A stretch of DNA of 64,000 bases from Dehalococcoidia bacterium. GTDB taxonomy: Bacteria; Chloroflexota; Dehalococcoidia; Lucifugimonadales; SAR202-VII-2. Location: NCBI GenBank assembly GCA_965263165.1, contig OZ253584.1, positions 245,785 through 309,784 on the forward strand. Reading direction: 5' to 3'. A model generated the notes under the pieces. That model worked only from the letters and a program-made list of their open reading frames with translations. It made no database searches and was not told the DNA's origin. Positions 8,615-55,655 of this stretch are shown here, one piece after another. A program made the translations under genes and the position numbers. Within the stretch, counting starts at the first letter, position 1, and each line of letters opens with the position of its first letter.

Positions 8615-8617
8615 CGA

Positions 8618-11875: not shown

Positions 11876-11964
11876 TCACTGCATCGCAAACCTCAGCCAG
11901 CGTTCCCCCGGACGATGGGGTACCATGGAAACAAGCGCGCCAGCCCCCTGGATACAGGCTCGAA

Positions 11965-28654: not shown

Positions 28655-28729
28655 GGGCCCGTAGCTCAGTGGCAGAGCGGCCGGCTCATAACCGGTTGGT
28701 CGTAGGTTCGAACCCTGCCGGGCCCACCA
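28655..28729 (+). tRNA. tRNA-Met (anticodon CAT; could also be a lysidine-modified Ile2)
   Basis: GGGCCCG-TA-GCTC-AGTGGC-AGAGC-G-GCCGG-CTCATAA-CCGGT-TGGTC-GTAGG-TTCGAAC-CCTGC-CGGGCCC-A-CCA folds as a cloverleaf with an encoded CCA. Confidence 0.9.
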
Positions 28730-30309
28730 TGTAAGACCGAATTCATAACTCGCCCGTTTAGGGCTATCTCTGTGGCGTCCGCTCCCCCTATAGGGCTGTC
28801 ATCCGGCGTGGGAATCGAGTAGATGATGGCGGCCCTGCCGGGCTTGACCTGTACCTCCTTGACGAAGGAGTGAACGAAGGCCCTGGTCTCGGTCAGCTCG
28901 CTGGTCTTGAGGAAGTCGCTCATCTCCTCTGCGAAGGTGGCGATGGTGTCGGCGCTGTCCAGAAGCTGCCTCCTCTCTTTCAGCAGCCCTCTCGCCTCCT
29001 CTGCGGCGACCTCAAGGGTCTCCTTGCGCTCCCGGAGTTCCACGATGAGGTCCGAAGCCTCGGCCACGTCCACGCTGTCGCTCTTCGCTATGAAGTGCCA
29101 GACGCGGCCCAGTTGCTTCTTCACCTCCTCAAGCTCCCCGTCGATACTCTCCAGCCTCTCCCGCTGGTCGCGGGCCACGCCGTCCATCTCCTCGTCCAGC
29201 AGCTTCACCAGGTCTCTGATGTTGGACTCGGTGAGGATGTTGGCGCGAAGCTCATCGACGATGATCTTCTCGAATTTCTTGGCGTTGAGCCTGGGGGTCT
29301 TGCAGGTGCCTTTGCCCCGCTTGAGGAGGGAGTGGCAGATGTAGTAGGTGTACTTGCCGCTCTTGGCCTCGGCTGCGGTCATGGCCTTGCCGCAGGTCTC
29401 GCACTTGGCGATGCCGCTGAGCAGGTAGGGGCTGGAGATGCGGCGGGGGTTCACCTTCTTCGGGGCGCGGGACTCCATCATCCCGGCGATGCGCCGGAAC
29501 TCCCGCCTGGAGACGATGCCGGGGTGTGCGTCCTCGACGCGCACGGGGGGCTGACCGTCCTTGGCCTTCTCTCCCCAGACCACGGTTCCGGCATACGCCT
29601 CGTTGGTGAGCACGAAGTGGACGGTGGTCTTGAGCCACTTCTTGCCGTTGGAGGTGGGGATGCCCTCGGCGTTGAGGGTCTTGGCGATGTCGAGGGTGCT
29701 CTTTCCCTGGAGGGCCATGTCGAAGATGCGCCGGACCACTGCGTCGGCGGGCGGGTTCAGCTCCAGCTTGGGGCGCTTCTTCGGCCCGTCCTGGACGTGG
29801 ACCCGCTTGTAGCCGTAGGGGGCGTAGGTGGTCATCCAGAAGCCTCTGGACGCCGCCTCCCGCATCCCCCGCGTAACCTCCTGGGCAAGATTTTCACTGT
29901 AAAATTCGTCCACGCCCTCGATGATGGCCTCCAACAACCTGCCGGAAGCGGTGTCCTCGGCCTGCTCGGTGATGGAGACCACGCGGATGCCCCGTCTGCG
30001 CAGCATGGACTTGAAGGCGACGGCGTGCTCGCGCTTGCGGGTGAACCTGGAGAATTTCCAGACAAGGATTTCCTTGAATGGGGCCTCGGGCTTCCCGGCC
30101 GCGTCGAGCATCTTCTGGAACTGGGGCCGGTCTGCGATGCGCCCGCTCTCGGCCTCGTCCACGTACTCGCGGCAGACCAGGTAGTCGTTCTTCTCGGCGT
30201 AGTCCCTGAGCGCCCGTAGCTGGGCGGCCACGGACAGGTCCACGTCCTGGCGGTCGCTGGATACCCTGGCGTAGAGGGCCGCTGGCGTGCGGTCTAGTCG
30301 GTCGTTCAT
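28666..30309 (-). CDS. large serine recombinase (integrase)
   Basis: ALYARVSSDRQ (catalytic Ser), a resolvase domain, a recombinase domain, a Cys4 zinc ribbon (CETCG...YYICH...C) and a coiled coil. Real start is ATG 30309 (MNDRLDRT). The last ~21 codons are read from the complement of the tRNA gene. Confidence 0.9.
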   Translation of the reverse strand: MNDRLDRTPAALYARVSSDRQDVDLSVAAQLRALRDYAEKNDYLVCREYVDEAESGRIADRPQFQKMLDAAGKPEAPFKEILVWKFSRFTRKREHAVAFKSMLRRRGIRVVSITEQAEDTASGRLLEAIIEGVDEFYSENLAQEVTRGMREAASRGFWMTTYAPYGYKRVHVQDGPKKRPKLELNPPADAVVRRIFDMALQGKSTLDIAKTLNAEGIPTSNGKKWLKTTVHFVLTNEAYAGTVVWGEKAKDGQPPVRVEDAHPGIVSRREFRRIAGMMESRAPKKVNPRRISSPYLLSGIAKCETCGKAMTAAEAKSGKYTYYICHSLLKRGKGTCKTPRLNAKKFEKIIVDELRANILTESNIRDLVKLLDEEMDGVARDQRERLESIDGELEEVKKQLGRVWHFIAKSDSVDVAEASDLIVELRERKETLEVAAEEARGLLKERRQLLDSADTIATFAEEMSDFLKTSELTETRAFVHSFVKEVQVKPGRAAIIYSIPTPDDSPIGGADATEIALNGRVMNSVLHGGPGRVRTYDQPVMSRPLCH

Positions 30310-30533
30310 CAGTCTCTCCTCCCTGTGTCTTCCTGTGCTGTAGTCGTGCGGGAGCGCAGCCATTCCAGCCGCTCCCGTCTGCGCCATTCCCGCTCCTCCA
30401 TGAACAGGCGGATACCCTGTCTGAGCAGCTCGCTCACGGAGAGGTCGTCCTCCTTCATCACATTCCGCACCTGCGCCTCCATCTCCGGGGGCAGGGAGAA
30501 GGTGATGGTCTTGGAACGCCTGGGAGTGGTCAT
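30309..30533 (-). CDS. ribbon-helix-helix (CopG/Arc-like) protein
   Basis: 74 aa. KTITFSLPPEMEAQVRNVMKEDDLSVSELLRQGIRLFM is a typical RHH beta-strand plus two helices. ATGA overlap with the recombinase start. Confidence 0.6.
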   Translation of the reverse strand: MTTPRRSKTITFSLPPEMEAQVRNVMKEDDLSVSELLRQGIRLFMEEREWRRRERLEWLRSRTTTAQEDTGRRD

Positions 30534-30616: not shown

Positions 30617-30991
30617 TCAAGGAGCCGATGCCACTTCTGGGCCGAGATTGTTGTCACCCGGTTCCAGTTCGTTTTCCCTGATTTCTCCATCTTTGGTAAT
30701 AGTGAATCGACGCCCATCGAACAGGCTTTCCATAATCATGTAGATGTGGTCGTCTGCACGAACTACGATTTCCTGCTTCACGGGCGGGTTGAACTTTACT
30801 TTGAAGCTCACGCCAGTTATCGAATACCCGTGGGCGGGGTACTTTGGGTAGTCTGGCACTGTCAATATGCTGCCCTCTGGGAACTGAATGTCGTACTCGT
30901 CCTTGTCCGGGTGTCTGCTCCATTCTTCATCGGTTATCTTCTGAAGGGTCTCAGCTTCCTGCCCAAGAATTCCGATGAAGATCTGGTTCAA
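30617..30991 (-). CDS. hypothetical protein (124 aa), lower-GC patch
   Basis: Only long ORF with non-biased composition in this stretch. It lies 9 nt downstream of the Mrr-like gene. No motif recognised. Confidence 0.45.
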   Translation of the reverse strand: MNQIFIGILGQEAETLQKITDEEWSRHPDKDEYDIQFPEGSILTVPDYPKYPAHGYSITGVSFKVKFNPPVKQEIVVRADDHIYMIMESLFDGRRFTITKDGEIRENELEPGDNNLGPEVASAP

Positions 30992-31000
30992 CCGGAGAGA

Positions 31001-31546
31001 TCAATGGATCGGGCCTCCCTGATAGGATTGCTCGTCGGGACCGGGCTTAGGTGCGGTCAGGCGGAAGTGGATGTCGTATATCTCGGTTTGATCCACCATC
31101 AGCGTGATATGAACCTCTCTGATGTAGCCGTCCCAGTCCTTGTCCAGCGGTTTCCTCAACTCGACCAGCCCAATGTTTTTGGACTCTGCGTAGGACCTGC
31201 CAGGACCCGTGAAGCCCATCTTGGAGACGATTACGCCTTTGTTCAGGTTCGCGTCTTGAAGTATCTGGGCGAAGTCCCTAACTACAGGTAGGCCCACCTT
31301 CGCGTTCCAGTTCTTGCACGAGATGGCCGTTCTGTACTGATGCAGGCCATCGCTGTGTTTCGTCAAGACGTCGATCTGGTGGAAAACGCCGGGCGGTCCT
31401 TCGACCCGGCATGAACTGCCCCAGCACTCGATTGTCACTCCACTGGCCCGTCCTAAAGCTTGATAGATGTCCTTCACCAATTCCTCGTAGTCTTGCCAGC
31501 GGACATCACTTGGCTCAGGGGCAGAACGTCCACCAAGTCTTGCCAT
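31001..31546 (-). CDS. Mrr_cat-type restriction endonuclease domain protein (PD-(D/E)xK), stand-alone
   Basis: WQDYEELVKDIYQALG...FHQIDVL...AISCKNW...VVRDFAQIL...GVIVSKMGFTGPGRSYAE follows the Mrr catalytic-domain pattern (FE..V..L; D; (Q/S)CK; vr.f; F.T..A). Confidence 0.7.
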   Translation of the reverse strand: MARLGGRSAPEPSDVRWQDYEELVKDIYQALGRASGVTIECWGSSCRVEGPPGVFHQIDVLTKHSDGLHQYRTAISCKNWNAKVGLPVVRDFAQILQDANLNKGVIVSKMGFTGPGRSYAESKNIGLVELRKPLDKDWDGYIREVHITLMVDQTEIYDIHFRLTAPKPGPDEQSYQGGPIH

Positions 31547-31579: not shown

Positions 31580-32512
31580 CTACCAGGGGCCAACCGCTGC
31601 CACCGCTGGTATCGGCTTCCGCCTGCGCCCCGGCATGTCCGATGCGACCATTTGGGGGCCGAGGGCGGCGGCGTAGCTTTCGGGCACCGCGACGACGACG
31701 ACCCTCGCCAGCTTCCCCATACGGATGACGGGCCGGGCCAGGGCGGCGTAGCCGCCGCCCTGAGCGAAGCGCGCCGTGCCGTAGCGGGCGGCCTGCTCGG
31801 CCAGGGAGCCGGGGGGTATGGGCCTGCCCCAACGGGGGACGCCGCCACGCTCCCCGCAGATGGGGAAGTCGCTCGGCGTCCCGAATCCCCGCGTCCGCCG
31901 GGCGACCTTTACCCGGAGGTCAGGCGAATCGGCCCGATCTTTGGAGTCTCTCCCGTCCTCCCTCGCGTACAGGACCACCATGAGGGGCGGGTCGCGCAGC
32001 ACCTCGGCCAGCCGGATGGACACGGCGGCGTAGGAGCAGCGGAAAGCCCGCTGCAACTTCAGCACGTCCAGCCCCCACTCCAGGGCCAGCGGCTCGAAGG
32101 CCCTCGGCTGCATCAGGACCGCCGCCGCGAAGCGTTCGGCCTGCGTGCACACCTTCCGGTCCGGCGGAGAGCCGGACTCCATGTCGCAGAGGGTCTCGTA
32201 GATGATCTCGTAGGTCTCGTGGATCACCGAGTAGTCCTGCGTTCCCTCCCACAGGTCCTCCCGGTAGTGGATGTCGTAGCCGCCCCCCGGCGCGCTGTAG
32301 TGGATGCCCTTCGCGTCCATGTGCCTACTGCCCGATACTTCGCCGAACCCGGCCCGTTTCAGCAGGGCCTTGATCTGCTCCATCGTGGGACGGGCTGGCA
32401 CGTCGAAGTAGCGCACGAAGCGAGCGGCGAGGGTCTCCGGGTCCAGGGCCTTTTGGGGGCGGTCGTCCAGCAGTATGCGGCAGAAGTCCTCTCTCGTCCT
32501 GTTCATGCTCAC
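31580..32512 (-). CDS. ImmA/IrrE-family (COG2856, DUF955) metallopeptidase-like protein
   Basis: It sits directly after an XRE gene. The region VIHETYEIIYETLCD...ERFAAAVLMQPRAF resembles the ImmA/IrrE core, but the HExxH reads HETYE. Start is GTG 32512 or ATG 32506. Confidence 0.65.
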   Translation of the reverse strand: MSMNRTREDFCRILLDDRPQKALDPETLAARFVRYFDVPARPTMEQIKALLKRAGFGEVSGSRHMDAKGIHYSAPGGGYDIHYREDLWEGTQDYSVIHETYEIIYETLCDMESGSPPDRKVCTQAERFAAAVLMQPRAFEPLALEWGLDVLKLQRAFRCSYAAVSIRLAEVLRDPPLMVVLYAREDGRDSKDRADSPDLRVKVARRTRGFGTPSDFPICGERGGVPRWGRPIPPGSLAEQAARYGTARFAQGGGYAALARPVIRMGKLARVVVVAVPESYAAALGPQMVASDMPGRRRKPIPAVAAVGPW

Positions 32513-32958
32513 TCCAGCAGCCTCTTGTTGGCGAATCGCTCGTACATCTCGACGATGAACCGCTTGGTCTTCAGGGTGATGGGGCCGTCGGGCCGGGTGC
32601 CCACGCGGAACACGGGGTCGGCCAGCACGTACTGGTAGGCCCGCTCGATCTCCATCGCCTCGCCGCTGTAGGGGTCGGGCTGGCCCACTCGCCCGGCCCG
32701 CTTCATAAGCTCCTGCTCATCCACGTTGTAGAGGGCGGCCAGCTTGCCAATCATGTTGGAGCCGGGCTTCCGGCCACCCCGCTCTATCTGGGAGAGGTAG
32801 GAGCTGGAGATGCCTGTGCGCCGGGTCACGTCCCGCAGGCTGAGGTCTCCCCGCAGCCGTCTCAGCAGCGGTCCGATTTCGTCATCGCCCTCGATTGCCT
32901 CTCGGTCGTCCATCTCCCGGTCGTCGTCATGGTCGTCCATGATGTCTCCCTCTTGCAT
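32509..32958 (-). CDS. XRE-family HTH repressor (ImmR-like)
   Basis: LRRLRGDLSLRDVTRRTGISSSYLSQIERGGRKPGSNMIGKLAALYNV. Confidence 0.85.
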   Translation of the reverse strand: MQEGDIMDDHDDDREMDDREAIEGDDEIGPLLRRLRGDLSLRDVTRRTGISSSYLSQIERGGRKPGSNMIGKLAALYNVDEQELMKRAGRVGQPDPYSGEAMEIERAYQYVLADPVFRVGTRPDGPITLKTKRFIVEMYERFANKRLLE

Positions 32959-33002
32959 CCGTAGTTGCGAACAGCGTCGCGCACGGCGTGCCTGCTACAT
33001 CG

Positions 33003-33022
33003 CAGCTAACTTACAGCTAACT
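33003..33022 (+). promoter_or_regulatory. direct repeat CAGCTAACT x2 in the divergent control region
   Basis: CAGCTAACT at 33003-33011 and 33014-33022, between the divergent XRE genes. Confidence 0.4.
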
Positions 33023-33228
33023 AATTGTTACATCAGAGCGAGCAATTGTCAATAAAGCCTTCTTACAAGCCTCAATACCGTCTTTTCTCCATTGCCTCTG
33101 TCCGCTATATATTGCTACACTTACGCCAACAGAACAAAGTATCGTATTTCGATCCGAGTATACATCACCGACGCCCGCTAGGGCCACACCCTCGCGGCGC
33201 TCCGAACCCCACGAGAGAGACGGACCGC

Positions 33229-33402
33229 GTGAATAGCAAGCGAAAGCGGAAGCTGACGGACAGGCAGGAGCGGAGGCGCATCGAGGGCCTGCGGATACTG
33301 GCCCGCATCATCGCGCGCCACTACCTGGCCAACCCCCACCTGTACCGCAACGGCGCAGACGGGGACGGCTCGCAGTCGGCTCGGAAGGAGGACGAGGCGT
33401 GA
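33229..33402 (+). CDS. small basic protein (57 aa), tentative
   Basis: GTG start, VNSKRKRKLTDRQERRRIEGLRILARIIARHYL. GTGA overlap with the next gene. Weak support. Confidence 0.3.
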   Translation: MNSKRKRKLTDRQERRRIEGLRILARIIARHYLANPHLYRNGADGDGSQSARKEDEA

Positions 33403-33641
33403 AGCGCAGGCAACCCTCATCGCGAGTCAAGCTCAACCCCCACGCCGTGTGGGAGCTTCTGAACCGGCTCAACATGACCCAGAACGAGCTGGCGCGGCTG
33501 GTCGGCACCTCATCCGGCTACCTGTCCCAGCTGATGTCCGGGACTCGCTGCCCCTCGGCGGACATGCGCAAGCGGCTCATGGAGGCCCTGGGCGTCACCC
33601 GATTCGAGGACCTGTTCATCCTGGAGCAGGTCCATGTGTAG
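33399..33641 (+). CDS. XRE-family HTH protein
   Basis: LNMTQNELARLVGTSSGYLSQLMSGTRCPSADMRKRLMEALGV. Confidence 0.8.
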   Translation: MKRRQPSSRVKLNPHAVWELLNRLNMTQNELARLVGTSSGYLSQLMSGTRCPSADMRKRLMEALGVTRFEDLFILEQVHV

Positions 33642-33948
33642 CGAAGTCCCCACCTCGTCCGATTCCCCGCTCATTCCGCCCGGCGTTGCTCTGATGCCCG
33701 ATGACTTCCCCGAACGGCTGGAGGCGGTCAGAACGCTGTTCGACCTCAACTGTGAGGAGATGGCCGTGGCGCTGGGCGTGGACCCACGTCAGCTGATGCG
33801 CTGGCGCATCAAGGGCGGCGGTCCCAACGGTGGCGCGATGCTGGCCCTGGTGCGGCTGGCGATCCGGTCACCGGAGGGTCTGGCGAAGCTGCTGGACGAG
33901 GACGTGATCGTGATCTTCAAACCGAGGAGGAGTGACAATGGCAACTGA
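33634..33948 (+). CDS. PFPEDF-HTH module protein A (1 module)
   Basis: PDDFPERLEAVRTLFDLNCEEMAVALGVDPRQLMRWRIKGGGPNGGAMLALVRLA. Overlaps the upstream stop. Confidence 0.6.
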   Translation: MCSEVPTSSDSPLIPPGVALMPDDFPERLEAVRTLFDLNCEEMAVALGVDPRQLMRWRIKGGGPNGGAMLALVRLAIRSPEGLAKLLDEDVIVIFKPRRSDNGN

Positions 33949-34516
33949 CGAGAGAAATCGGACCTTGGACCTTCGCCCGCCGCCCTTTCCCGAGGAATTC
34001 GGGCAGAGGCTGGAGGGCCTGAAGGATATGACCGGGCTGTCGTGGGGTGAGTTCGCCGAGCTTCTCGGCGTCACCGAGCGCGGCCTGTTGAAGTGGCGCA
34101 GGGGAGGGCCGCCGTCGGGGGCCTACTTCTGGGCCATCATGGAGGTGGCGCGGGGCGTTCCCGGGGGCTTCGACCTGATGCTGGACGGCGACACCGACAC
34201 GGAGAAGTGTAGGAACATCAAGGGAGGTAGGAGCATGGTCATGGACGAAGGAGAGCGCATCGAGGACTTTCGCGCCGGGCCGTTTCCGGAGGACTTTCCG
34301 GCGTACTTGGGACGGCTGGAGGACCTGTCGGGGATTTCGCTTGAGGAGTTCGCCGATTGGTTGGGCCTGCCGGAAGAGCGGCCAGGGGAGTGGCGCAGCG
34401 GGGCTATACCCACCGGGGACGAGATGTGCGCCATGATCCATTGGGCCTGCCGCGTTCCCGGAGGCCTGTCGGTGCTGCTGACTGGCGATCCCTACTCCCT
34501 GACGGTAAGGGAGTAG
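33938..34516 (+). CDS. PFPEDF-HTH module protein B (2 modules)
   Basis: PFPEEFGQRLEGLKDMTGLSWGEFAELLGVTERGLLKWRRGGPPSG...ARGVPGG and PFPEDFPAYLGRLEDLSGISLEEFADWLGL...CRVPGG. ATG 33938 lies 7 nt after GAGGAGG. Confidence 0.65.
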   Translation: MATDERNRTLDLRPPPFPEEFGQRLEGLKDMTGLSWGEFAELLGVTERGLLKWRRGGPPSGAYFWAIMEVARGVPGGFDLMLDGDTDTEKCRNIKGGRSMVMDEGERIEDFRAGPFPEDFPAYLGRLEDLSGISLEEFADWLGLPEERPGEWRSGAIPTGDEMCAMIHWACRVPGGLSVLLTGDPYSLTVRE

Positions 34517-34520
34517 GACG

Positions 34521-34802
34521 GTGGGACGCCGGCAGGAATGGGTATACCACGTGGAGCCTGAGGAGTTCCCCCAGGACTTCCCTGAAAGGCTGGAACGCTT
34601 CAAGCAGGCTGCCGGGCTGACTTGGCGGGGGCTGGCCCGCCTCCTGAAGGTCAACGCCCGCTTGGTGCGCCGGTGGAAGGCCGGAGCCAAGCCCGGCCCC
34701 GGCCACCTGGTCAACCTGTTCGACCTGGCGGCCGGGATGGGGCTGCTGCACATCCTACTGCCGTCGGTGGGTGAGCCGGAGACCGCCGTGGGGGAGGACT
34801 GA
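34521..34802 (+). CDS. PFPEDF-HTH module protein C (1 module)
   Basis: EFPQDFPERLERFKQAAGLTWRGLARLLKVNARLVRRWKAGAKPGPGHLVNLFDLA. GTG start after GGGAG. Confidence 0.6.
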   Translation: MGRRQEWVYHVEPEEFPQDFPERLERFKQAAGLTWRGLARLLKVNARLVRRWKAGAKPGPGHLVNLFDLAAGMGLLHILLPSVGEPETAVGED

Positions 34803-34832
34803 GGGCGAGCGGGGCAAAGGCAACGGGTTCTC

Positions 34833-36547
34833 ATTAGCCCGAATCCACCGAAAGACGACTTTGGGGACAGTCCTTGAAGAAGCCAGAGGGTGCTCCTCTG
34901 AATCTGGGAGAATGGTTTTGAAACAGAAAACCGCCCGGAAACAAGGAGCACCCAGTAGATGCTGCCACAGAACAATCCCGACCGTATCGGCGTCGTCTTT
35001 GACGACCACCGCCTGGTGGCCAATGCCGGCCTGCTCCTGCCGGCCACCCTTGCACAGCACCTGGGCCTGCGGGAACTCGTCGACCATCACCTCGACCTCG
35101 GCTGCGCACCGGGGCGGGCGAACACGGGGGACAAACTGCTGACGCTGGTCGCTTCCGCGCTGGCGGGCGGCGACTTCATCGACGACGCCGATGCGCTGCG
35201 TGCTGGTGGGACGGTCGGTGTTCTCGGCTGCGTGGTCAAGGCGCCATCCACCCTGGGCACCTTCCTGCGCAGCTTCCGGTGGGGGCATGTCCGTCAACTC
35301 GACCGGGTGAGCCGCCAGTTGCTGGCACGCGCATGGGCCGCTGGGGCCGGACCCGGCGACTCGCCCCTGACCATCGACCTGGACTCCACCATCTGCGAGA
35401 CCTATGGACTGGACAAAGAAGGGGCGCGACACCACAACTACACCGGCGCGCGGGGCTATCACCCACTGCTGGCCATCGCCGCCGGAACCGGCGATGTGCT
35501 GATGTCCCGGCTGCGCGAGGGCCGTGCTAACACCGCTCGCGGCGCTGCCCACTTCCTGCGTGAAACGGTGGGGCGGGTGCGCTACGGTGGGGCCAGCGGC
35601 CAACTCACGGTGCGCGCCGACAGCGGCTTCTACGCCCACGCTCTCGTCGCCGTCTGCCGCGAGATGGGTGTCCGCTTCTCCATCACCATCCGCCAGCACA
35701 AAGGCCTGCGGGAGTTGATTGAGGCGATCCCCGAGCAGGACTGGACGCCGATTCCCTACTGGATGGACGGCGCCGCCGATGTGGCCGAGACCACCTATAC
35801 CCCCTTCCAGAGTGAACCCGACGCCGCGCCGGTGCGGCTCATCGTCCGGCGGGTGAAGCCCACGCCCGGTTCCCAGTTGGCCCTCTTCGCCACCTACAGC
35901 TATCACGGCTTCATCACCGACCGGAACGGGGAAACCCTGGAACTGGAGGCCGATCATCGCCGCCACGCCGAGATCGAGAACGCCATTCGAGACCTGAAAC
36001 ACGGCGTCGGACTCAACCATCTCCCCTCGGGGCGCTTCGCCGCCAACGGCGCCTGGCTGGCGGTGCAGGTGATGGCACACAACCTCGCCCGCTGGACAGC
36101 GCGCATCGGTCTGGCCGAACGGACCGTGACCACCAAGACCCTCAGGCGGCGGGTCTTCGCTCTGGTGGGACGGATCACCCGCTCGGCGCGCCGCCTTACC
36201 CTGCATCTTCCCCAGCATTGGCCTTGGGAAACCCAGTTCACTCGCGCCATGGCCCGGCTGCGAGCCATTCCACTCCCCGCCTGAACTGCCAGCCTGCAAC
36301 TGACCCAACTTCCCTGCAAACTCGTGCCACCCCGGTCGCGCGAGAGTTCCCTGCTGCGTATTCTCTCGCCATCCCGCGCATCGCAGCTCCCGCAGAGGGC
36401 CATAGGGGCCCTATGCGGCGACTGAAGACCGTTCGCCGACCTCCAATCTACCCCAATGAGCCCAGCCATCTCCCCTGTAGCTCCCTCACCCACCCTGCCG
36501 CTGTCCTCACGCCGTCCATAGGTGTCCTTCGGTGGATTCGGGATTAG
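34833..36547 (+). mobile_element. IS1380-family insertion sequence
   Basis: Imperfect terminal IRs: TTAGCCCGAATCCACCGAAAGA (about 34834-34855) and the reverse complement of 36526-36547 (TAATCCCGAATCCACCGAAGGA). Exact ends are +/- a few nt; no clear TSD. Confidence 0.7.
34959..36284 (+). CDS. IS1380-family DDE transposase
   Basis: 441 aa. ...LTIDLDSTICETYG...YTGARGYHPLLA...VRADSGFY...ADHRRHAEIENAIRDLK is a characteristic IS1380 pattern. Confidence 0.9.
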   Translation: MLPQNNPDRIGVVFDDHRLVANAGLLLPATLAQHLGLRELVDHHLDLGCAPGRANTGDKLLTLVASALAGGDFIDDADALRAGGTVGVLGCVVKAPSTLGTFLRSFRWGHVRQLDRVSRQLLARAWAAGAGPGDSPLTIDLDSTICETYGLDKEGARHHNYTGARGYHPLLAIAAGTGDVLMSRLREGRANTARGAAHFLRETVGRVRYGGASGQLTVRADSGFYAHALVAVCREMGVRFSITIRQHKGLRELIEAIPEQDWTPIPYWMDGAADVAETTYTPFQSEPDAAPVRLIVRRVKPTPGSQLALFATYSYHGFITDRNGETLELEADHRRHAEIENAIRDLKHGVGLNHLPSGRFAANGAWLAVQVMAHNLARWTARIGLAERTVTTKTLRRRVFALVGRITRSARRLTLHLPQHWPWETQFTRAMARLRAIPLPA

Positions 36548-36713
36548 ACGCAACGAGGGCCGGGCGGGATAAACCGTCCGGCCCTCTCTTTTTGTCTTGG
36601 AGGAGAGGCGCTCGTAGTGGTATTGTTAGGTCTGGACCATCCCGAAGGGAAGCCCTGCAAAGCGGGGTTTGGACGAGGAGACAATCACAGACAAAGACCG
36701 AGGAGGTGGCGAT

Positions 36714-37010
36714 ATGGCTGTCGAAGGACGTGAAGGGAGCACTAGGAAGCAACGGCGAACCCCCTTTCCCGAGGACTTCGGGGAGCGGCTGGAACGCCTG
36801 TTGAAGATGGCCGAGCTGTCGCCGCAGGAGTTGGCCGAGCTTCTCGGCGTGATGGAGCCCACCGTGCGGAGGTGGCTCAGGGGAGGGGAGCCCAAGGGGT
36901 TCAACTACCTGGCCATTATGAGGCTGGCGCGCGGCGTCCCCGGTGGCCTCAATCTGATGCTCTACGGCGACCCGGAATCGGAGGGCGACAGACTCGGAGG
37001 GGACCGATGA
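36714..37010 (+). CDS. PFPEDF-HTH module protein D (1 module)
   Basis: PFPEDFGERLERLLKMAELSPQELAELLGVMEPTVRRWLRGGEPKGFNYLAIMRLARGVPGG. ATG 36714 follows GGAGGTGG. ATGA overlap with the next gene. Confidence 0.65.
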   Translation: MAVEGREGSTRKQRRTPFPEDFGERLERLLKMAELSPQELAELLGVMEPTVRRWLRGGEPKGFNYLAIMRLARGVPGGLNLMLYGDPESEGDRLGGDR

Positions 37011-38668
37011 AAGCGGGCCAAGTAGCACTTCAACAACTCTTGAATGGGAAGATTCAATATCGCGTACCTTTATTTCAGCGAACTTACAGCTGGGGCGAAG
37101 ACCAGTGGTACAGACTGTGGGCGGATGTGTTGGAAATCTACGGGATGGAAGAGCCTAGGAATCACTTCATAGGAGCGGTTGTCACCCAGCCCATTATCGA
37201 CGCGGCTGGATTCACGACAAAATATCTTCTGATTGACGGACAGCAGCGGTTGACGACGCTCTTTATCATCCTAGCCTGTATTCGCAAGTCAGCATCCCAC
37301 GTAGCGTCACTCCCCGATCTTGTGGACGAGATATGGGAAACCTGTCTTGTGAATAAGTTTGCGCCTGCTAGTGATGACTTCCTCAAGCTTCGCCCCACAC
37401 AGAGAGACCGCCAGACTTTTCGCGCTTCAATCGATGGTGAAGTTGCTAACCAAGGTGGGCAAGTGACCGCCGCCTTCAGGTATTTCTCAGAAAGAATCGC
37501 TGAAGGCGACTTGGAGGAGCATCCCCTATACTTGCGCCAATTGAAGTTGTGCATCACTGACCGCCTCGATTTGGTAAGCGTCACTTTGGAAACTGAAGAC
37601 AGTCCTCATCGAATCTTTGAAAGCTTGAACAACACCGGTATGCACCTCGGCTCTTCCGACCTCATTCGCAATCTCATCTTCATGAGCATTTCGGGAGAGG
37701 AAGAGACACAAGACGCATATGACCGGTACTGGTTTCCGATGCAGGAGGCAACGGGCAACCGTCTCGACGATTTCTTCTGGCATCACCTCATGATGGACGG
37801 GAGTCTCCCAAGACAAAGCGAAACGTTTGAAGAGGTTAGGAAACGTTTCGGCTCTGGGGACACTCCTCGGGCAGTCGAGATGTTGATACAGTTCTCCAAG
37901 TTCGCCCGATACTATCGCTGGCTCTGCGGGATTGGAGATGAAGAGCCGGAAGGCTCATTGCTACGACAGATCAAACGGCTCAATACCTGGGAGGTCAATG
38001 TTGCCTACCCCTTCCTGATGCGGTCGCTGGATTGGGTAGACGGAGGAAGGATCAGCACCAGCGACCTAGCAAGTGTTATGAAGATGATCGAGTCCTTCGT
38101 AGTGCGTAGAGCGGTCTGTAACGTGCCTACGAACCGACTACGTGGCATCTTCGGTCGTATGTCGGGGCAAATCGACTCGTCGGACTTCGTTGCTTCATCA
38201 GGCGAGTATTTGCTCGCCAACCACTGGCCGACTGACGAGGAGTTCAACCACGCGTTCGTGGGATACCACGTTTACTCCCGGCGCCTAGCCAGGACCCGGC
38301 TGATCCTAGGATCATTGGAAGAGTCTTTTGGCCACAAGGAATCCCCCCAGATCACCGAGGAAATCACCGTAGAGCATGTGATGCCCCAAACCCTGACGAC
38401 TGACTGGGGGGAAATGCTGGGTCCTCGTGCGGTCGACATCCATTCACAGTGGTTGCACACACCTGGAAACCTTACGCTGACGGGTTACAATCCGGAATTG
38501 GGAAACGCCTCCTTCTACGAGAAGAAGGCGTTGTTGGAAAGTGCGAAGTTTTCGTTGACCCACGCGATTCTCAAGTGTGATCGTTGGGACGAGAACGCGA
38601 TCAAGACCCGGGGTGAGGCGCTTGCCGAGAGGGCAGTCCAGATTTGGAGTAGGGCGCCGCGTCTCTGA
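37007..38668 (+). CDS. DUF262 + DUF1524 protein (GmrSD/BrxU/SspE-like type IV restriction-type enzyme)
   Basis: N-terminal YRVPLFQRTYSW...IDGQQRLTTL (DUF262 DGQQR motif) and C-terminal TVEHVMPQT...NLTL (His-Me/DUF1524-like). Real start is ATG 37007. Lower-GC patch. Confidence 0.85.
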   Translation: MKAGQVALQQLLNGKIQYRVPLFQRTYSWGEDQWYRLWADVLEIYGMEEPRNHFIGAVVTQPIIDAAGFTTKYLLIDGQQRLTTLFIILACIRKSASHVASLPDLVDEIWETCLVNKFAPASDDFLKLRPTQRDRQTFRASIDGEVANQGGQVTAAFRYFSERIAEGDLEEHPLYLRQLKLCITDRLDLVSVTLETEDSPHRIFESLNNTGMHLGSSDLIRNLIFMSISGEEETQDAYDRYWFPMQEATGNRLDDFFWHHLMMDGSLPRQSETFEEVRKRFGSGDTPRAVEMLIQFSKFARYYRWLCGIGDEEPEGSLLRQIKRLNTWEVNVAYPFLMRSLDWVDGGRISTSDLASVMKMIESFVVRRAVCNVPTNRLRGIFGRMSGQIDSSDFVASSGEYLLANHWPTDEEFNHAFVGYHVYSRRLARTRLILGSLEESFGHKESPQITEEITVEHVMPQTLTTDWGEMLGPRAVDIHSQWLHTPGNLTLTGYNPELGNASFYEKKALLESAKFSLTHAILKCDRWDENAIKTRGEALAERAVQIWSRAPRL

Positions 38669-38699: not shown

Positions 38700-39081
38700 G
38701 GTTCCGTTTGCTTCTAGCGTATGCCTTATGTGAAGGAGGAAGTATGACAACTAATGACTCTGGCAAGCTGAATATGGGAGGGGTAAGTGCTATTAAAGAA
38801 ATTACTGCTCTCCCACCCAACGAGTGGACGCCGAGGCAGAGGGACCGTCTAGCCACCTGCCTAGCGGCGCTTGCCCACCAACCTAGCAGGTGGTACTCGT
38901 ATCAAGATTGGGGGGCTGGCGGTCCTGTCAGGTTTCTAGGGCGGCGGGGCATAGAGTTTTCACCCGTCCCTAATCCTCGGCCAGTGAGTCGGTCTTACTA
39001 TAATGGCTGCGGCTGCAAAGAATCGCACTGGCGGTTGATCGGCACGGTCTAAATTGCGATACGCTAAAAGCAAACGGAACC
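38700..39081. mobile_element. 382-bp MITE-like element with 23-bp TIRs, 8-bp TSD and a passenger ORF
   Basis: Left TIR GGTTCCGTTTGCTTCTAGCGTAT (38700-38722). The right TIR is the reverse complement of 39059-39081, GGTTCCGTTTGCTTTTAGCGTAT (22/23 identical). Flanked by the direct repeat CCTCCGCC (38692-38699 and 39082-39089). Confidence 0.7.
38744..39052 (+). CDS. hypothetical protein (102 aa) carried inside the MITE-like element
   Basis: ATG lies 5 nt after GAAGGAGGAAG. MTTNDSGKLNMGG...NGCGCKESHW. No family recognised. Confidence 0.45.
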   Translation: MTTNDSGKLNMGGVSAIKEITALPPNEWTPRQRDRLATCLAALAHQPSRWYSYQDWGAGGPVRFLGRRGIEFSPVPNPRPVSRSYYNGCGCKESHWRLIGTV

Positions 39082-39120: not shown

Positions 39121-39879
39121 TCACCGTCTGACGACGCCCTGGGGGTCTCGCCTCGACGCCCTGCGGTTGAGGGCGTGGTCGAGGATCCCGAAGGCCAAGC
39201 GGATGCCCAGCTCCGCCACCCTTTGGGACGGCTCCTCCTCCTGCTTGAGCAGGGCGTGGGCGATGAGGTCGGCCATCTGTAGCAGGTCGTCGTCCTGGGA
39301 GCTTCGGAAGGAGGGGCCGCCGATGATCCGCTCTATGGGGATGTCCTTCGTGGCCTGGCCGTCCTCCCAGACCTCGTACCTGCTGGGCACGGGGTTGCGG
39401 CTCCTGAGCCTGCCGTAGAGCCGCCTGACCATCCGCTCCCCTCCCTCGTCGAAGATGAGGTGGGCGTAGCGTCCGTCCGCCGCGACGGACGAGTTGATGC
39501 GGTTGAGCAGCCGGTTCAGGCTGACCTGTTCGTAGCCCTTTACGTCGGCCTTGCGCAGGCAGACGTTGACGACCTCGATGCCGCCCAGGGAATGGGCGGC
39601 GTTCTCTATGATGCGCAGGCCGTCCATGAAGATCTCGGCTCCCTGCTCCGGGGTGAGCCTGCGGCCGGTGTTGTCGATGCGGGCCAGCTTGCCCCGTCCG
39701 GCCAGCAGGTCGCAGGCGTGCAGCTCCCGGCTGGTCGGGACGCTGTAGTCGCCCGCCAACGCCGTGCGCCAGTCCTGGATGCGGCCATGCAGGCCGTTCC
39801 ATCGCTCGGCGTTCACGCCCAGGGCGGAGCGGACGTAGTAGCGGGGACCCTCGGACTCGTCGATGTAATAGATTCTCAT
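39121..39879 (-). CDS. DUF3800 domain protein
   Basis: MRIYYIDESEGPRYYV...LIFDEG...LQMADLIAHAL fits the DUF3800 pattern (YiDESG...D...aDlia). Real start is ATG 39879, with an ATGA overlap with the upstream gene. Confidence 0.65.
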   Translation of the reverse strand: MRIYYIDESEGPRYYVRSALGVNAERWNGLHGRIQDWRTALAGDYSVPTSRELHACDLLAGRGKLARIDNTGRRLTPEQGAEIFMDGLRIIENAAHSLGGIEVVNVCLRKADVKGYEQVSLNRLLNRINSSVAADGRYAHLIFDEGGERMVRRLYGRLRSRNPVPSRYEVWEDGQATKDIPIERIIGGPSFRSSQDDDLLQMADLIAHALLKQEEEPSQRVAELGIRLAFGILDHALNRRASRRDPQGVVRR

Positions 39880-41552
39880 GGCCTTGGTTCTCCTTGCATG
39901 TCGGTCAGGGGGCGCACCGGCTCGAACCCGCCGCCCGGGGCGAACCATGCCCGTCCCAGCGGCCCCTCCCGCTCGACCAGCTCCCGGTGGGAGGCCAGCA
40001 GGGGAACGGCGGTCCTGAGACGGTCCATCTCCACCTGCGCCACTCTCAGGAAGTGGGTCTGTGCGATGTCGTCGTCGAAGACGACCAGGACGACGGGCGG
40101 CGCGCCGTGGTCGTCGATGGGCCGATGGGACGAGTAGTAGCGCAGGTATGGGGCGAGCCGCGCCGCCATGGTGACCGGCCGAACCGCCCTTCGCTCCCAC
40201 TCAAGGAAGAAGGGCCATGCGGTCCTGCCGCGCCTGAGCATCCCGAAGGCGTCGGGGTGCACCGAGCGCCTCCCGCCGAAGTAGCGGAAGTAGCGGGAGG
40301 CCCTTCGGGGCGGGTCGAGCTGGTCGATATCCCAGCCCAGGTCGCGGGCCTGCCGGGAGAGGGCCGCCGCGAAACCGTGGACGGCTGCGGTGTGCTGCAT
40401 GTCGCGGAGGAGCTGCCGGCTGCGCCTGCCGGAGACGCTGCGCCAGTCGGCTGCGGCCCCGGAGTCGGGGGGAGCGGCGCTCCACCGCTTCTTCGCCCCG
40501 GCGACGGCGGCCCGGTCCCTGCGGGCCAGAAGGGTCAGCCCCGCGTCGGTGAGCACCAGCCGCCGCTCTGCGGAGGGGACGCGGGCGGCCAGCCCGAAGC
40601 CCTCAAGGGCCGTGGTTAGCTGGGAGGCGCGCTGGTTGGTGACGCCCAGCAGCCCGGCGAGGTCGCCCAGGGCGAGCCAGGGCCAGTCGGAGAGCAGGTC
40701 GAGGGCGCGCTTCTCGGCGGGCTTCAGCAGGGCGGGCAGCATGTGCTCGGGGACGCCCCGTCCGCCCCCCCTGTCGTCGATGTCCTCGGGCATGGAGACC
40801 CGCGCCAGGGGCCGCTCGGCGGGGAGCGCGCCCCTGCGTTCGATCCGGTCGATGGCGTCCCGCAGGCTGACAGCGGCGTTGACCGAGGACAGCCGCCACA
40901 CCGGGTCGTCGGTGGCCGCTGCCGCCGCCGCCCGCTCCAGTGCGAGGACCGTTGGCGTGGACGCCCGGCGCAGAATCCCTCGGGCGTAGCGCAGCCGGGT
41001 CTCGTCGGGGAGGACGAGCAGGATTCCGCCGGGCTGCGGCCCGTCCCTGAGCCGCCCGATCCGCTTGGAGAAGCCGGTGCGGTCGGTGACGTGGCCCTGC
41101 CGGACGATGCCGATGGTCCTCCCGTCGGGAAGGATGATGGCGGCGTCCATCGGCATGGCGCGGTACCAGCGGAAGCGGATGGGGTGGTGGATGTTGGCGA
41201 CGGCGGAGGCCAGGCGGTAGATGACCGCCACGGCGTCGAGCCTCTCCAGGAGGACGCGCCGCCACCGGGCAGCCAACGGGTAGCTGCGGAGCAGCCGATC
41301 CGGGGTGAGGTCTTCCTCCTGGGCCAGGCGGCGCAGGCCGTCTGCGGTGAGGTGGAACCTGCGGGTGGGGGCAACGAGCTCCGTCCCGTGGGGTACGGAG
41401 GCGATCAGCCCCGCGTCCTCCAGCTGGCGGGCGGCCTCGTAGACCGCGCTCTGGGACCAGCCGGAGAGGGCGGTCATCTCCAGCCGGTCGAGAAAGGGCA
41501 TGGCGGCGAGGCGGCGAAGCAGCTCCCGCCTCCCCCCGGTGAGCGGCCTCAT
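39876..41552 (-). CDS. replication-relaxation (Replic_Relax) family protein with two winged-helix modules
   Basis: Two wHTH-like segments (LLRRLAAMPFLDRLEMTALSG...LEDAGLI and ALDLLSDWPWLALGDLAGLLGV...LEGFGLA). C-terminal ...HPDAFGML...WPFFLEWERR...APYLRYY is typical of the family. Confidence 0.7.
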   Translation of the reverse strand: MRPLTGGRRELLRRLAAMPFLDRLEMTALSGWSQSAVYEAARQLEDAGLIASVPHGTELVAPTRRFHLTADGLRRLAQEEDLTPDRLLRSYPLAARWRRVLLERLDAVAVIYRLASAVANIHHPIRFRWYRAMPMDAAIILPDGRTIGIVRQGHVTDRTGFSKRIGRLRDGPQPGGILLVLPDETRLRYARGILRRASTPTVLALERAAAAAATDDPVWRLSSVNAAVSLRDAIDRIERRGALPAERPLARVSMPEDIDDRGGGRGVPEHMLPALLKPAEKRALDLLSDWPWLALGDLAGLLGVTNQRASQLTTALEGFGLAARVPSAERRLVLTDAGLTLLARRDRAAVAGAKKRWSAAPPDSGAAADWRSVSGRRSRQLLRDMQHTAAVHGFAAALSRQARDLGWDIDQLDPPRRASRYFRYFGGRRSVHPDAFGMLRRGRTAWPFFLEWERRAVRPVTMAARLAPYLRYYSSHRPIDDHGAPPVVLVVFDDDIAQTHFLRVAQVEMDRLRTAVPLLASHRELVEREGPLGRAWFAPGGGFEPVRPLTDMQGEPRP

Positions 41553-44152: not shown

Positions 44153-44205
44153 TCGCTTGCTCCTTTCTCTATCGGTTCTCTCGCCTTGCGGTCGTTCGGT
44201 CGCTC

Positions 44206-50948: not shown

Positions 50949-51059
50949 CGGGGATGGCGCGACATCGGAGCGAGCAATTGGACGGGGAGGTTGGAATCGG
51001 GGGTCGAAACCACCTACAGGACAGCCCCCTCCAGGACATGACTGCGAGGAGGTGCGACC

Positions 51060-51923: not shown

Positions 51924-52121
51924 GGCGGTTGCTACATCGGAGCGAAGTGGGCGCTAAGTCGGTGCGAGCAATTTAGGTTGCGTTGGCCCGAAACAGGGTT
52001 TAGGGCCTTCCATTCGCTCGGTTGTTCGGGCGATAATTGACGCAGTTTCTGGCTTTTTCCAGTGTTTCCTGCCTAGAAACCTGGAGGATTCCCGTCCCCC
52101 GAATCCGGGACCGGCTGCATA

Positions 52122-54141: not shown

Positions 54142-54273
54142 ATGCCGCACCGGCCATTCGCCACGGCAACAACGCCACCCAAGGAGACAGTCCCGACCAC
54201 CGGGACAAGGCATCGAGCGGGACTGTCTCCGACAAGGGGGCCGTCCCGCTTCTTCATTACAGGAGGAAGCGAC

Positions 54274-55392: not shown

Positions 55393-55655
55393 GGCTCCGT
55401 GACGCACCGCATGATGGGCGGCTGCCTCGGAGCAGCCTGGGACGGCCCACACCGGGCCGCATACGCGAGTCCCGCCGTGGGCGGGCCTTCGCACGTTCAA
55501 GCATTCGCCTGGGGGCGTTGCCGGAACCCGACCGCCCCCGCTGGGGCGGTGCAGTCCGTCTCCCGTCGCTCTCCGCCTAGCGGCGGCGACTGATGGAGAC
55601 GTGCGTCCGGTTCCGGCGTCGTCCTCTAACCACCACGAAAAGGAGGACGACTCAC

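Follow-up and report, generated by a model that had tools for sequence, protein, structure and literature searches.

The window, by which we mean the whole stretch of 64,000 nucleotides analysed here, carries four genes (A, B, C and D) that encode five paralogous modules of ~90 aa, two of them in gene B. Their open reading frames run exactly as given in the first-pass annotation, which had described four consecutive genes in a single operon. Four module genes are indeed present, but an insertion sequence (IS) lies between C and D, and while the overlaps and abutments were correctly described, a terminator places D outside the A-B-C operon. The features of the locus and its surroundings are the following:

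28655-28729, plus strand: tRNA-Met gene (ARAGORN, Rfam), adjoining the recombinase ORF at its 3' end or overlapping it
28666-30387, minus strand: large serine recombinase (integrase), from synteny and from the Resolvase, Recombinase and Zn_ribbon_recom matches of its orthologues
30309-30533, minus strand: RHH gene just upstream of the recombinase, with a CopG-like PHROG match
31580-32512, minus strand: M78 (ImmA/IrrE-like) metallopeptidase (Pfam Peptidase_M78, E 2.9e-7)
32509-32958, minus strand: XRE149, a 149-aa canonical XRE repressor (ImmR-like; HTH_31 E 5e-11, HTH_3 E 2e-10), paired with M78
32959-33228, no strand: divergent control region with a minus-strand sigma-70-like promoter, TGYTACAYY repeats and a 19-nt box
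33229-33402, plus strand: p63, a small basic protein of ~57 aa whose gene opens the early operon and overlaps XRE80 at its end
33399-33641, plus strand: XRE80, an 80-aa canonical XRE (HTH_3 E 4.9e-11) in a Cro-like position
33634-33948, plus strand: gene A, a type-A module, which takes first position wherever it occurs in an array; its C-terminal tail, ...DVIVIFKPRR, is conserved
33938-34516, plus strand: gene B, a B1 module (about 33938-34216) fused to an acidic B2 module (about 34235-34516)
34521-34802, plus strand: gene C, a basic type-C module (HTH segment charge about +8) without the VPGG motif
34838-36542, plus strand: IS bounded by perfect 15-bp inverted repeats, with a DDE_Tnp_1_4 transposase (34959-36284); target duplication (A)TTAG
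36555-36596, plus strand: strong intrinsic terminator closing the early operon, with a T-run behind a 13-bp stem in which 11 pairs are G-C
36597-36713, plus strand: D upstream region with a promoter-like TTGGAG-N18-TATTGT and a conserved ~60-nt D leader
36714-37010, plus strand: gene D, type-D module with a transcription unit of its own
37007-38668, plus strand: GmrSD-like type IV restriction enzyme (Pfam DUF262 and DUF1524; PADLOC Orf5, HEC-06, mREase_IV)
39121-46479, minus strand: 3' part of the conjugation operon, convergent on the array (Pfam and synteny)
39121-39888, minus strand: DUF3800 gene (Pfam)
39876-41552, minus strand: MOBC-type Replic_Relax relaxase (Pfam)
41549-44638, minus strand: TrwB-like T4CP (Pfam)
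44206-46479, minus strand: VirB4/TraC (Pfam)

XRE80 and A overlap by 8 nt and A and B by 11 nt, gene B starts with an ATG behind an AGGAGG ribosome-binding site, and a gap of 4 nt separates B from C. The strong terminator between C and D, which is also found in L005 and L006, makes D its own transcription unit, and a terminator-like hairpin precedes D in 31/38 loci. Both L005 and L006 have the empty site of the 1.7-kb IS, which inserted recently into the C-D spacer. The promoter-like sequence and the leader of D come from an alignment of 28 upstream regions, and no conserved RNA structure was found in the leader. At its other end, D has had its final ~7 codons remodelled by insertion of the GmrSD gene, the start codon of which overlaps the stop codon of D (ATGA).

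The integrase, relaxase, coupling protein and VirB4-type ATPase that together define an ICE lie here in one contiguous island, with the tRNA-Met gene probably marking both the left boundary and the integration site. For the MOBC-type assignment of the relaxase, PMC5357655 lists PF13814 as MobC. A sub-threshold PrgI-like match was also seen in the element. The first gene of the early operon, p63, is conserved in about 60 loci, its start codon being read from the sequence. Within the control region, the 19-nt box ACATCAGAGCGAGCAATTG occupies 33030-33048 and has a second copy at 50962, the sole repeated box found. In its divergence this box follows XRE149 and M78 more closely than it follows the modules and, since it sits inside the repressor gene promoter, it may belong to the ImmR-like repressor.

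A family of XRE-fold modules

All ten module pairs are significant by BLASTP (29-53% identity, E 1e-7 to 3e-27), and 902 homologues provide independent support for the family, so the five-module repeat originally proposed for A, B, C and D stands; the pattern that the modules share goes far beyond chance expectation. The flanking canonical XRE proteins gave no significant BLASTP match to the five modules, with a best E of 0.03. The alignment is invariant at P19, F22, L26, A41, L44, W54, G57, P60, A72 and L83.

An AlphaFold2 model of D, built with a 51-sequence alignment, shows five compact helices (22-32, 37-44, 48-55, 62-73 and 78-84), with a mean pLDDT of 95-97 over residues 21-80 and values above 90 in the core. 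When searched with Foldseek, its top matches were all XRE proteins, namely C.BclI, HipB, CapH, P22 c2, ImmR and Aca1 (probability 0.99-1.0, rmsd ~1-3 Å, 50-66 columns), while a sequence-profile search of the PDB gave HigA-2, lambda CII and C.AhdI as best matches. A Cro/XRE-type HTH had been suspected at the centre of the module, and these results both bear this out and extend it, as the whole module is predicted to be a single-domain XRE/Cro-C1 HTH protein with the canonical five-helix fold. In the model, the PFPEDF box immediately precedes helix 1, which starts at F22, and the VPGG segment is the turn linking helices 4 and 5; neither is a separate domain.

Like members of the XRE/Cro-C1 superfamily (434 Cro, P22 c2, C.BclI, C.AhdI, HipB, HigA2, CapH), the modules place the HTH at helices 2-3, follow helix 3 with the conserved W-x-x-G-x-x-P loop, and join an N-terminal arm to a domain of ~65 residues. 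They differ in having a P-F-P-E-D-F cap and a V-P-G-G turn of their own, which precede helix 1 and helix 5 respectively, in having no added oligomerisation or sensor domain, in occurring as 3-6 ordered paralogues of which some types are strongly acidic, and in falling below the gathering threshold of every Pfam and NCBIfam HTH model. The module falls in no curated family of Pfam, NCBIfam or PADLOC, in line with its earlier description as unrecognised. Neither HTH_3, HTH_31 nor HTH_19 reaches its threshold in Pfam; HTH_3 (PF01381) scores 20.0 bits for B and 20.7 for D against a cut-off of 23, and HTH_31 scores 17.8-21.9 against 27. What matches there are in Pfam, NCBIfam and PHROGs are to HTH or 'transcriptional repressor' entries only, the PADLOC-DB 2.0 defence models give nothing for A, B and C and a single weak HTH match for D (mad1, E 2.5e-4), and no source checked holds a protein name for the module. 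Some orthologues do carry a precomputed PF01381 match, possibly a weak one, so the family lies at the edge of these Pfam models.

Several more specific identities were considered and rejected. For D, an excisionase or MerR-type assignment fails on scores of 24.8 bits against 27 (HTH_17) and 23.0 against 28.8 (TIGR01764), both confined to residues 35-59, and a winged-helix Xis fold fails on a model that is all-helical, with no wing. A type II toxin-antitoxin XRE antitoxin (HigA2/MqsA-like) would need an adjacent cognate toxin gene, and no toxin family was found near the modules in Pfam, NCBIfam and PADLOC scans; their neighbours are other modules, XRE80, the IS and GmrSD, and the similarity to HigA-2 is limited to the HTH domain. 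The ImmR/ImmA-type repressor pair fits the neighbouring 149-aa XRE and M78 instead, the modules being in the divergent operon. XRE domains are also used in multiples by poly-XRE proteins, which carry HTH_3 domains in tandem on one chain; the same element encodes such a protein of 416 aa with at least four HTH_3 repeats (54142-55392), and database chains have 8 to 34 matched stretches. However, those are generic HTH_3 repeats on a single polypeptide without the PFPEDF and VPGG signature, whereas most modules in the window have a gene to themselves, and they belong to distinct, conserved types.

Conserved arrays and an incidental nuclease

Among 78 Dehalococcoidia/Chloroflexota loci, 66 hold ordered arrays of 3-6 modules, so the arrays do recur, and one synteny is found in 65 of these: SerRec, RHH, M78 and XRE149 on the minus strand, then p63, XRE80 and 3-6 modules on the plus strand, then DUF3800, Relax, T4CP and VirB4 on the minus strand. 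The distant element L081 has the same layout, with a divergent XRE, a three-module fusion and then convergent large genes, one of which has a P-loop_TraG (VirB4/TraC-like) match. Because this one synteny is shared by 65 loci, the array is a core regulatory cassette of a putative ICE family common in uncultured Dehalococcoidia.

Ortholog types follow the order A B1 (B2) C (D) in 33 loci, and 24 loci have E F B1 (H) (D); a core of A/E, B1 and C/F is present in nearly all elements. The recurrence of distinct ortholog types, in a fixed order, throughout dozens of elements shows the modules to be an old, maintained paralogue set, which agrees with what had been proposed from their divergence. Wherever the acidic B2/H type occurs it comes after B1, often as a fusion. 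The charge of the HTH segment is +8 in C, +5 in F and +2 in B1, and negative in B2, H and G; these last three have a strongly negative net charge, as low as -10, together with acidic recognition helices, and look like poor DNA binders.

The GmrSD-like nuclease matches the PADLOC models of its kind (Orf5, HEC-06, type IV mREase) over its whole length. A module followed by GmrSD is found in only 3/78 loci and, as all three have the identical ATGA junction, the enzyme derives from one acquisition. In one of the three, L027, D carries a frameshift and GmrSD is intact. Most D-bearing loci have D followed directly by the convergent DUF3800 gene (with a gap of about 50 bp in L007), and others carry IS elements and other cargo in the same slots. 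GmrSD is therefore occasional cargo and not a partner of the modules, and its translational coupling to D is particular to this lineage. This removes the functional link between array and nuclease that the first-pass annotation had drawn, and with it the idea of an undescribed system centred on the nuclease, given also that the array belongs to an ICE regulatory region, that D is a separate unit and that the IS interrupts the gene run. Restriction-modification C proteins offer a similar picture to D in the window, being small XRE proteins translationally coupled just 5' of a nuclease gene, and C.BclI is among the top structural matches. That identity was nonetheless rejected, as the coupling is not conserved and D is nuclease-free in most elements. 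Upstream of D there are weak inverted repeats only, none of them standing out as a palindromic C-box-like operator.

A probable regulatory role and its alternatives

The regulatory module of ICEBs1 consists of the ImmR repressor, the ImmA M78 anti-repressor protease and a divergent Pxis operon, and its integrase is a tyrosine recombinase. Likewise, the XRE repressor gene of the present element adjoins genes for an M78 peptidase and an integrase, and this side is divergent from a small-gene operon that induction would de-repress. In contrast to ICEBs1, the divergent operon stops after genes for small HTH proteins only, conjugation is encoded in an operon of its own that runs convergently, and the integrase is a large serine recombinase. 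The modules are an ordered core part of the ICE early operon, within a phage-like switch to which GmrSD is incidental, and we consider it probable that they act there as XRE DNA-binding regulators. In this switch, the ImmR-like repressor and the ImmA-like M78 peptidase are transcribed one way and the translationally coupled early operon (p63, XRE80, A, B1-B2 and C) the opposite way, as far as the terminator, with D next under its own promoter and the genes for the MOBC relaxase, T4CP and VirB4 converging from the far side. Inactivation of the repressor would lead to expression of the early operon, and the modules, as sequence-specific DNA-binding regulators that probably work in combination, would then turn on excision and the distant conjugation operon. 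GmrSD was inserted once behind D, at a convergent junction that is a hotspot for cargo and IS elements, and makes use of D's transcript.

The array is thus most likely a set of early-operon DNA-binding regulators, possibly heteromeric; DNA binding, targets and an activator role are what we infer for its members. The recognition helices of the C/F and B1 types resemble those of DNA binders, and B2/H, given its constant position behind B1 and frequent fusion to it, may be a modulating partner rather than a DNA reader. It should be noted, however, that the AlphaFold model of gene B consists of two XRE domains joined by a disordered linker with no confident B1-B2 packing (pTM 0.46), which leaves the heteromer idea without structural support, and that acidic recognition helices such as those of B2, H and G are unusual among DNA-binding HTH proteins and count against this reading.

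Could the modules instead be DNA-processing accessories, either relaxosome/oriT-binding factors for the MOBC relaxase or directionality factors for the serine recombinase? We regard this as unlikely. The family is found almost only beside MOBC (Replic_Relax) relaxase elements, but this co-occurrence may reflect vertical descent within one ICE lineage. A G-type singleton adjoins the relaxase gene in L068, L075 has a conserved gene in the same position, and D-type modules lie co-oriented and directly 3' of the relaxase gene in L032, L037 and L045; no oriT, however, was identified near the array. Moreover, the element needs an excision factor and none is annotated, and D has sub-threshold excisionase-type matches (HTH_17 E 2.7e-5, TIGR01764 E 7.5e-5), yet these span the 25-residue HTH only, and the domain is predicted to be a five-helix XRE domain and not a winged-helix Xis.

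Some or all modules might also act by binding proteins rather than by reading DNA: they could counteract the ImmR-like repressor as anti-repressors, determine incompatibility or immunity among related co-resident ICEs, or be acidic anti-defence decoys in a new recipient. Such a role seems to us improbable. The net charge of about -10 in B2 and G, with their acidic 'recognition' helices, would suit it, and so would the frequent presence of several related elements in one genome (L014, L020 and L042 even share a contig) and the fusion and recombination of modules in several combinations (P0037, P0039, P0122, P0125). Furthermore, comparison of close relatives shows faster divergence in the modules (B1 about 74%) than in the conjugation genes (relaxase about 96%), which could equally point to a role in immunity, specificity or counter-defence. 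Against this, C/F and B1 have typical basic HTH segments, no module shows homology to known anti-defence or anti-repressor families in Pfam, NCBIfam, PHROGs or PADLOC, and the conserved type order with its near-universal core speaks for roles that are distinct and fixed, not for a repertoire that is shuffled. A new defence system, in which the array would be a bank of sensors, regulators or specificity subunits for the GmrSD-like nuclease, is very improbable and largely refuted by the phyletic pattern described above, for all that the ATGA overlap and the structural matches to the restriction-modification controllers C.BclI and C.AhdI suggest it, since the terminator also parts modules A-C from D-GmrSD and no PADLOC system model holds such modules.

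Beside the early-operon regulators that we favour, we entertain as a speculative and rather doubtful idea that the array is an obligate multi-subunit device, in which DNA-reading XRE modules (C/F, B1 and D) are combined with acidic, non-DNA-binding pseudo-HTH modules (B2/H/G) that serve as built-in anti-repressors, DNA mimics or decoys. Such a device might function in immunity or compatibility among ICEs that share one Dehalococcoidia genome, or in early neutralisation of the defences of a recipient. If true, both this regulatory logic for conjugative elements and this use of the XRE fold would be new.

Module genes and their fold

ORF positions and alignment agree with the first-pass annotation that four ORFs of the window, A to D, hold five copies of one module, here measured at ~90 residues. 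The genes and the features that interrupt them, by window position, are:

33634-33948 (+), gene A, ORF with one module
33938-34516 (+), gene B, ORF with two modules (B1 and B2)
34521-34802 (+), gene C, ORF with one module
34838-36542, IS with perfect 15-bp terminal inverted repeats (CCCGAATCCACCGAA), an (A)TTAG target duplication and a DDE_Tnp_1_4 transposase
36555-36596, strong intrinsic terminator directly 3' of the IS (13-bp stem with 11 G-C pairs, T-run)
36714-37010 (+), gene D, ORF with one module

In BLASTP, all ten module pairs are significant (29-53% identity, E 1e-7 to 3e-27) and none of the five modules matches the two adjoining canonical XRE proteins, while in a MAFFT alignment the other modules are 35-53% identical to D and all five share ten invariant positions in addition to the start methionine. 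The overlapping or abutting arrangement was also confirmed, with 8 nt shared by A and the preceding gene for an 80-aa XRE protein, 11 nt shared by A and B, and a gap of 4 nt between B and C. The genes are not strictly consecutive, as had been proposed, since the IS lies between C and D; the uninterrupted C-D site is kept in two near-identical elements at homologous loci (L005 and L006). Nor do they form a single operon that includes D: the terminator precedes D, is also found at the IS-free (empty) site, and by its position after C indicates that the early operon ends there and that D is a separate unit. D is separated from the preceding module by at least 203 nt in every locus compared, and 31 of the 38 cases have a terminator-like hairpin upstream of D, at a distance of 260 nt at most.

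Matches of the modules in Pfam and NCBIfam are all sub-threshold and all helix-turn-helix (HTH_3, HTH_31, HTH_17 and MqsA/YiaG-type HTH), those in PHROGs are 'transcriptional repressor' families, and a PADLOC scan of the modules returned nothing except a weak HTH match for D. Modelled with AlphaFold2 on a 51-sequence alignment, D is a confident five-helix domain (mean pLDDT 95-97 over residues 21-80; helices 22-32, 37-44, 48-55, 62-73 and 78-84). The top PDB matches of this model in Foldseek are all XRE/Cro-C1 proteins, namely C.BclI, HipB, CapH, P22 c2, ClgR, ImmR and Aca1, with probabilities of ~1, an rmsd of ~1-3 Å, and E-values that are modest because the domain is small; sequence-profile matches of the module are HigA-2, lambda CII and C.AhdI. 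The helix-turn-helix centre of Cro/XRE type read from the sequence is therefore borne out, to the extent that the whole module is one XRE domain. The PFPEDF and VPGG boxes do not hold up as separate functional motifs, as the model places both inside or against that domain: PFPEDF directly adjoins helix 1, which starts at F22, and VPGG is the turn between helices 4 and 5. From these placements the module is modelled as a single XRE domain, extended at the N-terminus by a short arm that is usually basic, and, judging by the model, a helix-turn-helix flanked by novel motifs is the wrong description of it. Protein B is predicted by AlphaFold to be two independent XRE domains with a disordered linker (residues 85-113; pTM 0.46). 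A compact B1-B2 pseudo-dimer was rejected for want of confident interdomain packing; a pseudo-dimer on DNA is still compatible with this model. The modules are a new, nameless subfamily of a very well-known fold; for this subfamily we found neither a curated model nor a name in any source.

An ordered array in an integrative conjugative element

A profile search of 5.8 billion proteins gave 902 relatives, none of them named, many being two-module proteins of ~174 aa or single modules of ~90 aa. A one-genome-per-species scan for one peptide motif taken from the module gave 174 confirmed matches, all in Dehalococcoidia/Chloroflexota. From it, 77 distinct loci were kept, all from MAGs of these lineages, and the loci were surveyed by scanning six-frame translations with the module HMM and the window's neighbouring proteins. 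The counts of the exhaustive profile search (3603, 424 and 13) overestimate the specific family, because generic XRE and poly-XRE proteins contaminate it. Among the database proteins, P0123 (4162 aa), P0139 (1048 aa), P0121 (1002 aa) and P0124 (792 aa) contain 34, 12, 11 and 12 module-profile stretches, respectively. On inspection P0121, P0124 and P0126 are tandem chains of generic XRE domains, and giant many-stretch proteins such as P0121 and P0124 are unrelated to the element. A phage or plasmid origin was rejected, with no match in 50,697 phage records; annotated plasmids hold only three weak module matches (34-46% identity), and IMG/VR has none beyond generic XRE similarity. In the literature searched, we found no paper describing these elements or the module.

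With the window included, 66 of 78 loci carry three to six modules, and 65 of these 66 share a common gene order. A minus-strand block (large serine recombinase, RHH protein, M78 peptidase and the 149-aa ImmR-like repressor XRE149) is followed by a plus-strand block (small basic protein, 80-aa XRE and the modules) and a last minus-strand block (DUF3800, Replic_Relax relaxase, TrwB-like coupling protein and VirB4/TraC). Pfam supports these assignments in the window and in loci L001-L003, and PF13814 is counted as the MOBC relaxase family (PMC5357655). The array-bearing locus is an integrative conjugative element (ICE), with the array inside its control region. This layout persists in the more distant element L081, where a divergent XRE and a fusion of three modules are followed by large convergent genes, of which one has a P-loop_TraG (VirB4/TraC-like) match. 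The large serine recombinase ORF (28666-30387, -) is overlapped or abutted at its 3' end by a tRNA-Met gene (28655-28729, +), where the element probably integrates and has its left boundary. No second att copy or tRNA-Met repeat was found in the window; long att repeats are not necessarily expected with a serine recombinase.

The ICE family is abundant, often with several copies per genome. Two or three related elements lie on single Dehalococcoidia contigs (L012/L013; L014/L020/L042; L029, L049 and others), sometimes head to head (SerRec+ beside SerRec-), and the sampled co-resident copies have the same array type (L014, L020) or a different one (L042). The window's element also encodes a 416-aa protein (54142-55392, +) that carries a tandem run of four or more canonical HTH_3 domains (Pfam E 2.7e-32, 4 stretches), a second and different way of multiplying XRE domains; it is followed by a SNF2/ResIII-type helicase (55593-58016, +) with weak ZorD/DpdE similarity.

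Clustering of 290 modules into types showed that distinct types return in a fixed order, in keeping with the maintained paralogue set that had been suspected.

Array patterns of module types and the number of loci with each
A B1 C D: 15 loci
E F B1: 13 loci
A B1 B2 C D: 12 loci
A B1 B2 C: 6 loci
E F B1 H D: 6 loci
E F B1 H: 5 loci

Types A and E are related and have the C-terminal ...PNGGAMLALVRLA...DVIVIFKPRR part in common, C and F are related, basic and devoid of VPGG, B2 and H are related and acidic, and B1, D and G are related to one another. One A/E, one B1 and one C/F form a core that nearly all arrays share, with B2/H and D optional. C has the most positive helix-turn-helix segment (charge about +8), ahead of F (about +5) and B1 (about +2); the segment is close to neutral in types A, E and D, whereas those of B2, H and G are negative. 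The net charge of whole B2 and G modules is about -10. Fusions join B1 to B2, an A-like to a C-like module (P0039), three modules (P0122) or two A-like ones (P0125), and P0037 is a single-module B1/B2 recombinant. In elements with a relaxase ~96% identical to that of the window, B1 is only ~74% and C ~80% identical, indicating that the cassette diverges or recombines faster than the transfer genes. Single G-type modules adjoin a Pfam-confirmed Replic_Relax relaxase gene in L068 and a presumed one in L075 (region ~8300-12100 in both). Downstream on the opposite strand both loci have defence-like cargo, in L075 Cap15 and a weak, sub-threshold CD-NTase-like gene (CBASS-like), and in L068 a large protein with a weak STAND-NTPase match. 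Two further G singletons (L063, L066) lie among TPR genes and recombinase fragments.

GmrSD and other cargo

The stop codon of D overlaps the start codon of the GmrSD gene (DUF262 + DUF1524) as ATGA, and the PADLOC models Orf5, HEC-06 and type IV mREase match GmrSD along its whole length. The first-pass annotation had tied the array to this nuclease and asked whether arrays recur beside it. Arrays do recur (66/78 loci), but a module is followed by GmrSD in no more than three, namely the window, L004 and L027. The ATGA junction is identical in these three, as is the remodelled C-terminus of D (GDRLGGDR in place of GEPAK), from which we conclude that GmrSD was acquired once. Over the D-GmrSD region, the window shares 99.7% identity with L027, which indicates that the window stems from a Dehalococcoidia/Chloroflexota organism or has the same element. 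In L027, D (10001-10295) is frameshifted and GmrSD intact, so that a functional tie is not sustained. Most other D-bearing loci have the convergent DUF3800 gene immediately after D (gap of ~50 bp in L007). Other elements have IS copies or unrelated ORFs at the D/DUF3800 junction and in the C-D spacer, both of which are insertion hotspots; together with the single acquisition, this makes GmrSD cargo that exploits the transcript of D, and no partner of the array.

Related transposase genes lie between array and DUF3800 in seven loci (L001, L002, L005, L044, L054, L055 and L061), marking the control region as a hotspot for IS and cargo. Between GmrSD and DUF3800 of the window, a 23-nt inverted repeat (38700-38722 and 39059-39081, 96% complementary) flanks 336 nt and may be a small non-autonomous element or a cargo-insertion scar. 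Between the RHH and M78 genes (30617-31546, -) there is an Mrr_cat restriction-endonuclease-like gene (31001-31546) with a 124-aa ORF; the limitation of the Mrr-like gene to a few related elements (L004, L036, L053) points to a second defence-like cargo slot.

Control DNA and the role of the array

Three copies of the repeat TGYTACAYY lie in the 270-bp divergent region, together with a good sigma-70-like promoter that serves the repressor strand. This repressor/early promoter region also contains, at 33030-33048, a 19-nt box, ACATCRGAGCGAGCAATTG, that recurs at 50962-50980, at the head of the conjugation region (two exact copies observed against 0.04 expected), with a split copy at 51932-51940 and 51964-51973. 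The box is truly repeated, but as a target of the modules it was rejected: its mismatches across loci follow the divergence of XRE149 and M78 (rho ~-0.55) more strongly than that of the modules (rho -0.14 to -0.32), and on this comparison we tentatively assign it to the ImmR-like repressor or to the promoter itself. We also discarded 'ATTGYTA' as an operator common to the divergent region and the D upstream region, a motif defined post hoc that, to judge by the aligned sequences upstream of D, is no more than a -10-like hexamer (TTGGAG-N18-TATTGT). D has this promoter-like sequence and a conserved leader of ~60 nt (GGGTTTGGACGAGGAGGCAATCACAGACAAAGACCGAGGAGGTGGCGCAATG; window 36640-36713), which is kept in 27 other loci even where the sequence farther upstream is unrelated. 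A structured RNA was rejected here (RNAalifold -2.8 kcal/mol, no covariation), Rfam gave nothing in the leader at its gathering threshold, and the leader may be a protein-binding site.

What, then, could the array do? We consider it reasonably probable that the modules are early-operon regulators of the element, which would bind DNA, be expressed once the ImmR-like repressor is removed, and act, probably in combination and presumably as activators, on excision and the distant conjugation operon. Of this reading, the analysis shows the fold, the genomic setting, the organisation of the operon and the order of the types, while DNA binding, its targets and activation are inferences. A role as accessory factors, either of the MOBC relaxase or of the serine recombinase, would suit the close association of the modules with MOBC elements, in which the G-type singletons beside the relaxase gene are included; we rate this role as unlikely. 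Equally unlikely in our estimate is a protein-binding role as anti-repressor, immunity determinant or decoy, which would fit the acidic B2/H/G types, the fast divergence of the modules and the residence of related elements in one genome. Slightly less likely again seems a heteromeric device in which some subunits are pseudo-HTH decoys or anti-repressors, and a system centred on GmrSD, rejected on its phyletic pattern, we regard as highly improbable.

The ImmR/ImmA-type switch and the transfer genes of this ICE family are of known kinds. What is unusual is an obligatory, ordered array of three to six XRE paralogues, acidic ones included, in an ICE family confined to an uncultured and genetically intractable class. 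The newly defined XRE subfamily is a hallmark of this abundant family, in which a large serine recombinase and an ImmR/ImmA-like switch accompany a VirB4-type transfer system with a MOBC relaxase, in hosts that are hard to culture and for which genetic tools are lacking. For the discovery of defence systems it holds a caution, since translational coupling to an odd gene array does not here make a system of the nuclease, which is a hitch-hiker. The array marks the regulatory core of the element, beside which two slots repeatedly take cargo (GmrSD, IS), and could serve in annotating mobile DNA in Chloroflexota MAGs, in tracing the horizontal transfer of defence genes and possibly dehalogenase islands, and eventually in vector building.
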